Positions 9,132 through 15,428 are shown, counted from the first letter of the stretch. The stretch is 54,958 nt of DNA from Candidatus Magasanikiibacteriota bacterium (GCA_023246655.1 JAHFHX010000006.1:1-54958); one strand, 5' to 3'. The notes: generated by a model not told the origin, from the letters alone. Numbers and translations are program-made.

Positions 9132-9860
9132 TCAAGAAGATGGCAACCCCTGCCAGATATGTTCAAACATGGTGCGTTCCAGGGCGGCAACCTCTTTACT
9201 TTCCGTAACAGTGGCAACGTAATCGGAAACAAACGAAAAGAGCGCGACTTTGTTTTTCCAAATATACATCAGGCCGTGGAACTCCGGATTCTGGGGAACA
9301 ATTCGGACCTGCCGCAGCTCGCCTGGGCCGAGCCGCTGCCGCTCCTGTGCTTTCGCGGAGGCGCGTAAAATGACCCGGAGCGGTATTTTCTTTTTTATCC
9401 GCGCCGTGACAAAATTTTCAAACTGTTCCAACTCGCGAAAAACATCATCCACCGAAGCAAAACTAATGAGTTCGTCGGCTTCATTTAAAATTTCGTTCAA
9501 AATAATTTTCATACCGTCTTTGCCTTCGTAAAACCGCATGCTCGGCCGACGACGAGATTTGCCCACAATGGCGTTGAGCTCAGGGAGAGCTTCTTTCAGC
9601 GTCTCGACGCGACTCTCCGCGAAGTTAACCACTTGATTGGGATCCTCGGCACTGTAGTAGCGGATATGTTTTTTGAGGAAGGTAGTGACCAGACCTTTGA
9701 AGCGTAAATTTTCCAATACTTCATAGGCGGTAGAGCGCACCACGCCGGCTTTAACGGCAATCTTTTGTACCGACGCGCTCCCTAGCTCCAAGGCCGCGAG
9801 ATAGAGCAGTGATTCTTTTGGCGTGAGGCCGGATTTTTGGAGGATGGTGTCTAGTTTCAT
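9132..9860 (-). CDS. TrmB-family transcriptional regulator
   Basis: GLTPKESLLYLAALELG...IAVKAGVVRSTAYEVLENL wHTH, followed by an FYEGKDGMK C-terminal domain. Confidence 0.9.
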   Translation of the reverse strand: MKLDTILQKSGLTPKESLLYLAALELGSASVQKIAVKAGVVRSTAYEVLENLRFKGLVTTFLKKHIRYYSAEDPNQVVNFAESRVETLKEALPELNAIVGKSRRRPSMRFYEGKDGMKIILNEILNEADELISFASVDDVFRELEQFENFVTARIKKKIPLRVILRASAKAQERQRLGPGELRQVRIVPQNPEFHGLMYIWKNKVALFSFVSDYVATVTESKEVAALERTMFEHIWQGLPSS

Positions 9861-9979
9861 AAAATCCAGATTACGCAGATTAACGGCGAGGATTACACAG
9901 ATTCAAATCCGCGTAATCATTTTAATCAGCGGAATCTGTGTTATTTTGCCGATTTTTTCGACAACATTTTAATACTCTT

Positions 9980-10015
9980 ATTTTACCTTATTTTACCTAT
10001 TTTGTCAAATATATA
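9980..10015 (-). promoter_or_regulatory. Promoter of the TrmB gene with adjacent candidate operator
   Basis: On the minus strand, TTGACA(10008-10003)-17 nt-TAAAAT(9985-9980). The 13-mer TGTCAAATATATA (10003-10015) recurs exactly at 47485-47497. Confidence 0.55.
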
Positions 10016-10097
10016 GATATTTTTTGCCGAAAGTATTGGCGTTTATTTTTTTGCGAGGTATAGTAGCTTGTTCTCAAATTTATAATGTATCTGTTCT

Positions 10098-12967: not shown

Positions 12968-13939
12968 ATGTCTAAAAAACTTTGGATTGGTTTGGCGGCA
13001 GTGGCTATTGTGGCCGTGGTTGCCGTTAATTTAATTAAAAATGGCGCGACGAAACCCATAGCGCACGTTTTGCCGGTCGTCAAAATTGGCTATCGCGCGC
13101 AGGATTTATATGCGCCGCTATTTGTGGGAATGGAAAAAGGGTATTTCAAAAAGCAAGGATTTAATGTAGAACCGGTAAAATTTGAGTCGACGAACGATTT
13201 AACGTCCGCGCTCCTTGCGGGTCAGGTGGATGCGTCGCTCGGCGGCGTGAATACTTTTCTACTTTTAAACATTGAACAAAAATCACCGGGCGCGCTTAAA
13301 CTATTTGGTACGGCGGAGGAAACCAAACACAAACCATCGAGTTTTTTGATTGTGAAAAAAAATGGGCCGATTACCTCTCTAGAGTCGTTGAAAGGCAAAA
13401 AAATTGGCGCTGGTCCGGGGTCGACCATGCAGATGATATATAGAATAATGATGACACAAAATAATATTACGACTTCAACTCTTGTCCAGATGGATCAAAA
13501 ATTGGAATTGCCGGCGCTCGCGGCTGGACAAATTGACGCCGCGATTGTGCTTGAGCCGCTGGCAACCATTGGCGCGGAAAAAAATATCACTCGGAATTTG
13601 GAGAGCGGGCTGTTTGACGCGTACATTTTGCCAAATCTTCCGGTGGCGGCGAGTGTGGTGACGATAAAATTTGTTACCGCTCATCCCGATGTTGTGCAAA
13701 AATTAATGGTTGCTACAGATGAAGCCGTTGATTTTATCCAGCATAATCCAGATGAACTGAAAACTATACTGACTAAATTCACCCCCGTAGAACTGGAGCT
13801 TGCCAAAAAAATAATTACCCCGCCGTTTCAAAAATCTACGGAAATTAATGTGGAACGACTGCAACAATTAACTGATAAGTTGCTCGTAGAAAAAGAATTG
13901 AGGGGGCGCGTAGAGGTGGCTGGGATGGTGCTTAAATAG
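12968..13939 (+). CDS. NitT/TauT (SsuA/THI5-like) ABC transporter substrate-binding protein
   Basis: N-terminal membrane anchor, PLFVGMEKGYFKKQG, SLESLKGKKIG, ALAAGQIDAA. Confidence 0.9.
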   Translation: MSKKLWIGLAAVAIVAVVAVNLIKNGATKPIAHVLPVVKIGYRAQDLYAPLFVGMEKGYFKKQGFNVEPVKFESTNDLTSALLAGQVDASLGGVNTFLLLNIEQKSPGALKLFGTAEETKHKPSSFLIVKKNGPITSLESLKGKKIGAGPGSTMQMIYRIMMTQNNITTSTLVQMDQKLELPALAAGQIDAAIVLEPLATIGAEKNITRNLESGLFDAYILPNLPVAASVVTIKFVTAHPDVVQKLMVATDEAVDFIQHNPDELKTILTKFTPVELELAKKIITPPFQKSTEINVERLQQLTDKLLVEKELRGRVEVAGMVLK

Positions 13940-13941
13940 CT

Positions 13942-14691
13942 ATGCTCAAAATTCAAAACATCTCCAAATCATACCCACAAAAAAATGGGAGACTTGATGT
14001 TTTGAATGACATCTCGTTTGATATTCGGGATGGTGAAATTGTGGCGCTCATGGGCCCCAATGGCTGTGGTAAAACAACGCTTCTTAAAATTATTGCCGGA
14101 TTTGAAATGCAATCTACCGGCAGTATTCTCTATAATACTCACGCTATTCAGGATCTGCGTTGTGGCATTGTATTCCAGAATACCCAGGAATCCTTATTCC
14201 CGTGGCAGACGGTTGAGAGGCATCTGACAACCAAGCCGGCTCCCTTAATGCCCAATGAAGCGCTTGAAGCTCTTCTCAAGCAGTTGGGGCTCTACGAACA
14301 TCGGCGTAAATATCCCTACCAGCTCTCCGGCGGGATGGCGCAACTGCTTGCGATTGGTCGCGCTTTTGCTCAAGCCCCCCAATTATTTTTATTGGACGAA
14401 CCGTTTGCGGCACTGGATTATTACACCGCGCTCAATGTGCAGCAGCGTTTTTTAGAGTTGTGGGAAACGCAGCGGACAACCACTCTTGTTATCACTCACA
14501 CGCTCGAAGAGGCTATTTTTTTGGCCGACCGAATTATTGTATTTTCCGAGGCGCCCGGCAGAGTGGTGGCAAATATTCCTATTAAACTGGAGCGACCACG
14601 ACAAAGAGAGATTATGGCCAACCCGCTGTTTCACGCCATTAAAACCGCCGCGCTTAACGCCTTAACTGGTTTTTTAATATGCGTTCCATAG
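13942..14691 (+). CDS. NitT/TauT ABC transporter ATP-binding protein
   Basis: GPNGCGKTT, LSGGMAQ, LLDEPFAALD, VITHTLEEAIFLADRI. Confidence 0.93.
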   Translation: MLKIQNISKSYPQKNGRLDVLNDISFDIRDGEIVALMGPNGCGKTTLLKIIAGFEMQSTGSILYNTHAIQDLRCGIVFQNTQESLFPWQTVERHLTTKPAPLMPNEALEALLKQLGLYEHRRKYPYQLSGGMAQLLAIGRAFAQAPQLFLLDEPFAALDYYTALNVQQRFLELWETQRTTTLVITHTLEEAIFLADRIIVFSEAPGRVVANIPIKLERPRQREIMANPLFHAIKTAALNALTGFLICVP

Positions 14692-15428
14692 TTATGCCAA
14701 CCATTTCACTTGTCGCAGGATTCATCAGCTGGCAAGCGGTGGTCATGTCGCATCGGTTTAACTTGCTTCTGGTTCCGGCGCCTATTGAGGTGGTAGGGGC
14801 AATGGAAAAAATTATAACGAGCCAAATAGGAATTGGCCATATTCTTGGCACACTCGCTCGGGCTGGCGTTGGCCTTATGGTTGGCACCGCTCTGGGCATT
14901 ATCAGTGGAGTCGTAATGGCCATCCAGCGACCGGTGCGGCAGGTGGCTTGGGGGTGGGTGGAATTTGTGCGTTCTATTCCGGCGCCGGCTTTAATGCCAT
15001 TGTCGCTCTTACTGTGGGGAGTGGGCGAACTTTCAAAGATTATTCTTATTATCGTGATCGTCGCGCTTCTCATGATAGTGAATACCGTGAGTGCAATTGA
15101 TAACCGCTCGCCGCTGCGGCAAATGGTGGGGCTGAGCTTGGGTTTTAAAAAATTTGAGCTGTGGCGACGTGTCATGTTGCCGGAAGCACTGCCGCAACTT
15201 TCAACTGGTTTCCGACTGGCGATTTCTTTAGCGCTCATTATTACTGTCGTGAGCGAAATGGTCATGGGCACATCGCATGGCATTGGCCGCGCCATCCTTG
15301 ATGCCGAACTTACCTATGAGACACCAACGATGTACGCCTATATTATATTGGCCGGCCTCATCGGGTACGGAGCTAATGCCATATATAATTATTTTGAACA
15401 AAAATATATTCATTGGAAAGGGAAATAA
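14679..15428 (+). CDS. NitT/TauT ABC transporter permease
   Basis: RSIPAPALMPL, EAA-like loop VGLSLG...RVMLPEALPQL, VVSEMVMG..GIG. Confidence 0.92.
   Translation: MRSIVMPTISLVAGFISWQAVVMSHRFNLLLVPAPIEVVGAMEKIITSQIGIGHILGTLARAGVGLMVGTALGIISGVVMAIQRPVRQVAWGWVEFVRSIPAPALMPLSLLLWGVGELSKIILIIVIVALLMIVNTVSAIDNRSPLRQMVGLSLGFKKFELWRRVMLPEALPQLSTGFRLAISLALIITVVSEMVMGTSHGIGRAILDAELTYETPTMYAYIILAGLIGYGANAIYNYFEQKYIHWKGK

Follow-up and report, generated by a model that had tools for sequence, protein, structure and literature searches.

What is a regulated import operon with three enzyme genes doing in a bacterium whose genome measures 1.13 Mb? The question is raised by positions 9132-15428 of a 54,958-nt stretch of DNA from a Candidatus Magasanikiibacteriota bacterium (GCA_023246655.1, JAHFHX010000006.1:1-54958), which at its full length is called the window here. 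A gene for a TrmB-family regulator diverges from six genes encoding a metalloenzyme of family PF04909 (Amidohydro_2), a small SRPBCC protein, a radical SAM (rSAM) enzyme, and the substrate-binding protein (SBP), ATPase and permease of an ABC importer (Table 1). We analysed these genes, compared the 97%-complete genome of origin with 60 family and order relatives (0.6-1.2 Mb) and read the genomic contexts of the rSAM homologues. Our preferred answer, to which we assign a probability of about 55%, is an operon for uptake and conversion that TrmB controls and that has a mosaic origin; it would import a heteroaromatic or aromatic compound and then tailor it by radical and hydroxylase-type chemistry.

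All seven reading frames are intact, and the open reading frame (ORF) calls gave the same gene positions, order and gaps (3, 38, 24, 2 and -13 nt between the six plus-strand genes) as a preliminary description made from the sequence alone. Pfam and NCBIfam also agreed with the families named there for TrmB, Amidohydro_2, Radical_SAM, NMT1, ABC_tran and BPD_transp_1. The ORF calls and families bear out the proposed single co-directional, TrmB-linked unit that couples an importer with enzymes. The further idea that the six-gene operon is one pathway unit stood only in part: the genes are co-directional, but the operon is a mosaic in which three enzyme genes lie inside a TrmB-importer module of the relatives.

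Orthologues of the SBP were found in two relatives with genomes of ~1 Mb (G018 and G016; 43-48% identity). In both, a divergent TrmB gene is followed by the SBP gene and then by the ATPase and permease genes (35-43% and 37-45% identity to the window proteins, respectively), with no enzyme gene in between. The operon's TrmB shares 65% identity with its counterpart next to the orthologous importer of G016 and 49% with that of G018; with the window's two further TrmB paralogues it shares just 22-26%. The lineage's own module consists of TrmB, the divergent promoter and an NMT1/SsuA-family SBP with its ATPase and permease; in the window genome, the three enzyme genes sit between the conserved promoter and the SBP gene. 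Neither the rSAM gene nor the PF04909 gene occurred in any of the 60 relatives, which marks the operon as accessory in this lineage. The CPR label used in the preliminary description agrees with the genome sizes (1.13 Mb here, 0.6-1.2 Mb in the relatives). The G+C content at third codon positions (GC3) was 0.39-0.42 in the three enzyme genes (0.41 in the PF04909 gene), 0.46-0.52 in the transporter genes and 0.57 in the TrmB gene. Because these two relatives hold TrmB and the importer with a homologous promoter but without the enzymes, we conclude that the operon is a mosaic. Three acquired genes were probably inserted into a lineage-typical regulated importer; we consider it less likely that the relatives lost them.

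The intergenic region between the TrmB and PF04909 genes could be aligned with the TrmB-SBP intergenic region of G016. The conserved blocks (GACAACATTTT, TTGTCAA, AAGTATTGGCGTTT and GGTATAGT) cover TGTCAA-type boxes as well as the TTGGCG and TATAGT elements of a promoter-like site for the operon, which a promoter scan placed at 10036-10064 (TTGGCG-17-TATAGT). The same scan found a promoter-like site for trmB (TTGACA/TAAAAT) within 9861-10097. As the homologous promoter stands ahead of the SBP gene in G016 and ahead of the PF04909 gene here, one predicted promoter appears to drive both the enzymes and the importer. The 13-mer TGTCAAATATATA at 10003-10015 has a twin copy at 47485-47497 (two occurrences in the window versus 0.08 expected), and both copies sit upstream of TrmB paralogues. 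TGTCAA/TTGACA boxes were also present upstream of the third TrmB gene (40028) and in the orthologous intergenic region of G016. No riboswitch or other Rfam element was detected in the 237-bp divergent intergenic region, nor any riboswitch in the window.

The rSAM enzyme belongs to the HemN-like superfamily by its cluster motif, its GGGTP sequence and its homology to nearly the whole length of HemN. C75/C79/C82 (CxxxCxxC) and GGGTP are conserved in 33/33 members of its clade, and the clade profile matched HemN 1OLT (E 8e-50, residues 59-432) and also the class C methyltransferase NocN. The top NCBIfam matches were all HemN-like, each below its own cut-off: HemW TIGR00539 (150.7 versus 205.4 bits), HemN TIGR00538 (148.8 versus 324.95), HutW TIGR04107 (139.8 versus 400), STM4012 (152 versus 380) and also HemZ. 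The HemN_C domain (PF06969) was detected in no clade member, and the fourth Cys of HemN (CxxxCxxCxC) has no counterpart in the window enzyme (CKIRCLYCRY). HNxxYW, the heme-binding motif of HemW (PMC10114718), was found in 0/33 clade sequences. The clade stands at about the same distance from HemN, from HemW, from ChuW and from those class C methyltransferases that are known. It shares CxxxCxxC, the GGGTP region and the profile matches to HemN and NocN with the HemN/CgdH, HemW, ChuW/HutW, NosN/NocN and MenK-type enzymes; unlike these, it falls below all curated cut-offs, lacks HemN_C, the fourth Cys and HNxxYW, and forms a separate, rare clade that is tied to ABC importers and not to genes for heme, ribosomally made peptides with post-translational modifications (RiPPs) or quinones.

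The rarity of the clade is seen in a homologue search among 5.8 billion clusters, which returned ~36 clusters with E-values of 1e-128 to 1e-70 and 36-48% identity before significance fell to 1e-34 (HemW-like proteins). In the tree, a main clade of 30 is separated from a deep three-member clade formed by the window enzyme, L002 and L005 (support 100/99). A scan of GTDB genomes with the full rSAM alignment, which contains generic HemN/HemW motifs, recovered HemW-like loci only (25-36% identity). A metagenome scan with the clade-specific C-terminal alignment (RPHYY, TRVP) recovered four loci only, and no viral contig matched the rSAM motif.

Twelve genomic contexts of the clade, the window included, were informative. 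An NMT1-type SBP, ATPase and permease adjoin the rSAM gene in nine of them (the window, L001, L002, L003/L004, L006, L093/L113, L105, L106 and L114). Given the few NMT1 systems per genome, this adjacency should lie far above chance, which is a judgement and not a computed value. The nearest rSAM homologue (L002, 48% identity) is encoded in a TrmB-divergent ATPase-permease-SBP-rSAM unit. The commonest order was SBP, ATPase, permease, a protein of 740-860 aa and the rSAM enzyme (L001, L006, L093, L105, L106 and L114); on contig L111, which ends early, the gene for the 740-860-aa protein lies immediately 5' of the rSAM gene. Genes of the U32 family (Peptidase_U32) were found near the rSAM gene in 4/12 contexts, as tandem pairs in L106 and L114 and also in L003 and the archaeal contig L092. 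In place of an amidohydrolase or an SRPBCC protein, the rSAM clade usually has the 740-860-aa protein and U32 proteins of the UbiU/UbiV-like kind as its partners. Co-occurrence of all four families, which the preliminary description had proposed to look for in other genomes, was seen in no other context examined, whereas its narrower part, the pairing of the rSAM enzyme with an NMT1-type ABC importer, did recur (9/12 contexts).

U32 enzymes hydroxylate quinone rings or the C5 position of pyrimidines. The tandem L106 pair scored best with UbiU and UbiV, both below threshold (101 versus 440 and 44 versus 275 bits). In pairing such proteins with a HemN-like rSAM enzyme, the commoner cassettes recall the logic by which rings are hydroxylated without O2 and methylated in quinone biosynthesis (UbiU/UbiV/UbiT; class C methyltransferases such as MenK), and the window operon does so in carrying a hydroxylase-like enzyme together with a lipid/ligand-binding protein. 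The likeness is one of functional logic only: the U32 scores are far under the cut-offs, an importer is attached, and neither polyprenyl nor quinone genes came to light. The window's own genome encodes no U32 protein. The 740-860-aa protein, which is not present in the window, has conserved RDHxxH, HDxGYP, HH and CDxxQExGRP motifs. It gave no Pfam or PDB sequence match and no plasmid match; its AlphaFold2 model was poor (pLDDT 56), and Foldseek gave weak GAF- and PDE/HD-like hints with no match at E<=1e-3. Our literature search found no description of the rSAM clade with this importer/U32/large-protein cassette.

Cassettes of this kind lie at L106:811-8811 and L114:1584-9634, and further ones in L001, L006, L093, L105, L111 and L113, on scattered metagenome contigs. 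Several copies are near integrase, transposase, TrwB/FtsK-like, Vsr or AbiEii genes.

The PF04909 protein had been described as kin to decarboxylases and hydrolases. This did not hold for its nearest solved structures, which are amidohydrolase-related, O2-dependent dinuclear oxygenases (AROs). We built a family profile from 23 members, and its six best PDB matches were all AROs (8SM9 at 3e-41, 8SM7, 8SM8, PtmU3, SfbO and AibH2, down to 2e-28). The best decarboxylase match, ACMSD, followed at 9e-23, so that the AROs were 8-18 orders of magnitude closer in E-value. Two motifs define the AROs: D-x-H towards the N terminus, on strand 1, and D-x-P-H-x-[D/E] towards the C terminus (PMC13154177; see also PMC10811679). 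In the window family, H183, H206, E235 (in EGG/EAG) and H275 are invariant or nearly so, and D-F/Y-P-H-E-P is invariant. Candidate counterparts of the six ARO metal ligands in the window protein are D/E-x-H, His183, Glu235 and Asp300-x-Pro-His303. These residues align with the metal ligands of the AROs, a group that includes PtmU3, AibH2, SfbO and DitZ. The alignments suggest an ARO-like metalloenzyme, with a hydroxylase as our leading guess.

In contrast to the AROs, homologues of the window protein lie in CoA-dependent and UbiD-containing catabolic clusters, where they were found at 52-54% identity. One such cluster comprises enoyl-CoA hydratases, an electron-transfer flavoprotein (ETF), an SDR, a PaaA/C-like protein and an NMT1 SBP; another holds UbiD, the FAD subunit of a Mo-hydroxylase and a nucleoside hydrolase. 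At L089:1-2170, a 52%-identical homologue stands beside a second PF04909 gene, a gene for a 144-aa protein and an orphan NMT1-type SBP gene. Co-location of PF04909 and NMT1-type genes therefore exists outside the rSAM context too.

The SRPBCC assignment of the 147-aa protein had been sub-threshold by sequence (Polyketide_cyc2, 19.5 bits versus a cut-off of 27.4), and structure prediction came down in its favour. The AlphaFold2 model (pLDDT 88) has a beta-alpha-alpha-beta6-alpha helix-grip topology, and Foldseek matched it to CoxG, PYR/PYL and START proteins with probability 1.0 and TM scores of ~0.65-0.78. The modelled fold is that of SRPBCC (START/Bet v 1/CoxG) proteins. A word search gave no relatives of the protein, and only five remote ones were found among 1.84 billion representative proteins.

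THI5 and ThiY are pyrimidine-binding members of the NMT1/THI5 family. The SBP of the window matched PF09084 (NMT1) at 89 bits, PF13379 at 67 bits and PF12974 (Phosphonate-bd) at 38 bits; its best PDB matches reached only E ~1e-8 and included THI5/THI13. It is the sole NMT1-type SBP of the genome at E<=1e-10. The scores for sulfonate models were too low for assignment (SsuA_fam TIGR01728, 124 versus 163.5 bits; TauA-type TIGR01729, 35 versus 304). The ATPase has Walker A, the ABC signature and Walker B, with SaoA, TauB, PhnT2 and NtrCD as best NCBIfam matches; those of the permease were SaoP, SsuC, TauC and NtrB, and all of these matches were sub-threshold. Like the members of the NitT/TauT family (SsuABC, TauABC, ThiXYZ and SaoXAP), the window set is a complete SBP, ATPase and permease with NMT1/SsuA-type domains, but it stays under the cut-off for each specific subfamily. 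The selenocysteine-assisted organometallic (SAO) system, with CC/CU motifs in its SBP and a MerB-like SaoL (bioRxiv 2022.07.06.499078), was considered and rejected: the scores were 198 versus 360 bits for SaoA, 110 versus 295 for SaoP and 66 versus 300 for SaoX, and the window SBP contains no Cys.

How might these parts work together? In the preferred reading of a regulated uptake-and-conversion operon, the importer would take up a small organic molecule, and TrmB would sense this molecule or its product. The rSAM enzyme would carry out a radical step of the two-SAM, class-C type on the imported molecule. If it resembles class C methyltransferases in this, the step is most likely the C-methylation of an sp2 carbon; the alternative would be an oxidative decarboxylation of the HemN type. 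The ARO-like enzyme would add a hydroxylation (less likely a hydrolysis or decarboxylation) and so may stand in for the UbiU/UbiV-like U32 hydroxylases of the commoner cassette, while the SRPBCC protein may hold the substrate or an intermediate, if hydrophobic. Four things suggest that the substrate is heteroaromatic or aromatic: what HemN-like and U32 enzymes are known to catalyse, the presence of an SRPBCC partner, the THI5/ThiY kin of the SBP, which bind pyrimidines, and the contexts of PF04909 homologues. Within this range, we favour a pyrimidine-, pterin-, pyridine- or hydroxybenzoate-like compound by inference, and we think salvage or tailoring a likelier role than bulk catabolism. Those HemN-like enzymes that have been characterised work on rings, aromatic or heteroaromatic, or on the side chains of tetrapyrroles (PMC10114718).

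Several observations weigh against this reading. The importers linked to the rSAM clade are only ~30% identical to each other, so a shared ligand is not implied and the pairing may have arisen repeatedly, and PF04909 and SRPBCC genes were found beside an rSAM gene in none of the other contexts examined. At the N-terminal ARO motif the window protein has E7-G-H9; the family consensus I-D-A-D-G-H does contain D-x-H and aligns to D-V-H of 8SM7. At the C-terminal motif it has D300-F-P-H303-E-P, with the carboxylate shifted by one position. Both published motifs are narrowly missed, and the motif filter of PMC13154177 would skip the protein, which may be a hydrolase or decarboxylase instead. No reductase or Rieske ferredoxin partner is encoded near its gene. 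An O2-dependent oxygenase and an O2-labile rSAM enzyme make awkward companions in one operon; an oxygenase is nevertheless plausible here because the genome has other O2-dependent families, an FA_hydroxylase in the window and a CT610-like protein in a folate operon. The direction of evolution, insertion as opposed to loss, was deduced solely from gene distribution and GC3.

A bolder form of the uptake-and-conversion reading, which we regard as speculative and rather doubtful, would make the window operon a derived, O2-adapted version of a scattered system. This system would consist of an NMT1-type importer and a HemN-like rSAM enzyme, usually with an O2-independent, UbiU/UbiV-like hydroxylase pair and the 740-860-aa protein with an HD-like motif, and would import, hydroxylate and C-methylate a heteroaromatic or aromatic precursor, as a route of salvage or tailoring that would be new. 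In the window, an ARO-like oxygenase and an SRPBCC carrier would have replaced the U32 pair.

Other explanations fit parts of the evidence. An unlikely one is the acquisition of sulfur or phosphorus from organosulfonates or organophosphonates, through Ssu/Tau/Phn-like import, hydroxylation next to the heteroatom and radical cleavage of a C-S or C-P bond. The importer's best curated matches do have this flavour (SsuA_fam, TauB, PhnT2, SsuC and TauC, besides the 38-bit match to PF12974), although every transporter match is below its family cut-off. Among the AROs, SfbO acts as a hydroxylase on derivatives of 2-aminoethylsulfonate, and its cofactor is perturbed by aminoethylphosphonate (PMC10811679). 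The sulfonate-binding R232 of SfbO aligns with the family-conserved R202 of the PF04909 protein, but the position of its R235 is occupied by His in the window protein. No sulfite reductase domain was found in the genome, which closes the usual route of sulfite assimilation. We know of no characterised HemN-like enzyme that cleaves C-S or C-P bonds. Coupling of an SsuABC importer to rSAM chemistry has a precedent in anaerobic isethionate use (PMC11423573). The isethionate reductase IsrBHDK itself is a functional analogue and not a homologue, as IsrB resembles BciD and has a nitrogenase-like enzyme as its partner (PMC11423573). Chance assembly is a further explanation, to which we give a low probability: three horizontally acquired genes would have landed in an importer operon and act independently of it. 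The absence of the rSAM and PF04909 genes from the relatives (0/60) and a GC3 below that of the flanking genes would agree with this, as would the fact that PF04909 and SRPBCC genes accompany the rSAM gene nowhere else and that PF04909 homologues reside in quite different catabolic clusters. Against it stand the NMT1-type importers next to the rSAM clade in 9/12 contexts, including the independent, TrmB-linked L002, and the tight packing of the genes (gaps of 3-38 nt) behind a conserved promoter.

Supply of the thiamine pyrimidine, which had been named in the preliminary description as a known pathway to which the cluster might map, is about as improbable as chance assembly. A ThiXYZ-like importer would bring in hydroxymethylpyrimidine (HMP), formylaminopyrimidine (FAMP) or a related pyrimidine, and the enzymes would make HMP or HMP phosphate (HMP-P) for ThiD2-ThiE. 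This idea went unsupported as an assignment of the operon, yet part of its setting is in place. The genome encodes a ThiD2-ThiE fusion (329 aa; 165 and 107 bits; contig C29 31553-32542, L109:5554-6543) and ThiC was not found in it, so the pyrimidine moiety has no known source in the genome. The SBP, the only one of the NMT1 type in the genome (E<=1e-10), belongs to the NMT1/THI5 family and has THI5/THI13 among its PDB matches, and G016 has both the orthologous importer and ThiE. On the other side, ThiE is missing from G018, whose SBP orthologue is the closest; the relatives with both ThiE and SBP numbered three versus ~1 expected, which was non-significant in a hand calculation; no ThiM was found in the genome; and the families known from thiamine salvage include none of the three enzymes. 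The cassettes of the main rSAM clade, with their U32 pair and large protein, do not look thiamine-like either. Thiamine pyrophosphate (TPP) riboswitches were found nowhere in the genome, which makes their absence at the operon uninformative. Least probable of all is heme or tetrapyrrole handling, in which a tetrapyrrole would be imported and the rSAM enzyme would serve it as a chaperone like HemW, decarboxylate it in the manner of HemN or open its ring as ChuW does. The best NCBIfam matches are indeed HemW, HemN, HutW and HemZ (139-151 bits), and the profile spans nearly all of HemN 1OLT, but these scores lie far under the cut-offs (205-400 bits) and HemN_C, the fourth Cys and HNxxYW all went undetected. 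The importer is of the NMT1 type and not of the heme/siderophore SBP type, and the gene has no heme gene context.

A single TenA-family match in the genome was followed as a lead to thiamine salvage and rejected. It is a Haem_oxygenas_2/CT610-like protein, not a thiaminase, and its gene sits in a folB-folK-folP operon (contig C2 ~13547-16068; L116:4548-7069). A Haem_oxygenas_2/TENA protein together with FolP, FolB and FolK resembles the arrangement of the CT610-type, O2-dependent synthase of p-aminobenzoate (pABA), which is unexpected in a very small genome.

In agreement with the preliminary description, no curated family model or described pathway fits the operon. Each of its genes comes from a known superfamily, and there is nothing unusual in the design, in which a regulator that responds to a ligand governs an importer and enzymes. 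What is new is the rSAM clade with its conserved importer/U32/large-protein cassette, the ARO-like subfamily outside the published motifs and the mosaic build of the operon. The rSAM clade is a candidate for a new activity, and its coupling to importers offers a handle, as the ligand of the SBP is likely to be the substrate of the enzyme or a precursor of it. The PF04909 protein, just beyond the ARO motifs, could either widen this newly defined superfamily of oxygenases or mark its limit. The locus also appears to show how acquired enzyme genes were set behind a pre-existing, ligand-controlled promoter, an instance of operon growth in a reduced genome. If the operon is a true salvage route, it would enlarge the range of products that organisms with very small genomes are credited with making from compounds they scavenge.

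Table 1. Features of the TrmB-linked operon and its promoter region (window positions)
Feature	Position	Strand	Evidence
TrmB-family transcription regulator, 242 aa	9132-9860	-	PF01978 47 bits; divergent from operon
Divergent promoter/operator region, 237 bp	9861-10097	.	Promoter scan and alignment with G016
PF04909 (Amidohydro_2) metalloenzyme, putative ARO-like subfamily, 342 aa	10098-11126	+	PF04909 110 bits
Orphan SRPBCC (helix-grip) protein, predicted ligand-binding, 147 aa	11130-11573	+	AlphaFold model and Foldseek
HemN-like (class-C-type, two-SAM) radical SAM (rSAM) enzyme, 443 aa	11612-12943	+	Radical_SAM 85 bits
NMT1/SsuA-family SBP, N-terminal membrane anchor or signal, 323 aa	12968-13939	+	PF09084, PF13379
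ABC ATP-binding subunit, 249 aa	13942-14691	+	PF00005 (ABC_tran) 111 bits
ABC importer permease, 249 aa	14679-15428	+	PF00528 (BPD_transp_1) 76 bits; 13-nt overlap with ATPase gene

Defence-system models (PADLOC) gave nothing meaningful. Elsewhere in the window, three successive ORFs of 470, 211 and 1120 aa occupy 41224-46853 on the minus strand between two TrmB paralogues; none had a Pfam match at E<=0.001. The loci 2889-3662 and 53205-54494 encode a protein of the FA_hydroxylase family, whose members are di-iron membrane proteins that depend on O2, and a flavoprotein of the Pyr_redox_2 family (NDH-2-like). These two proteins hint at oxygen exposure and membrane redox chemistry.

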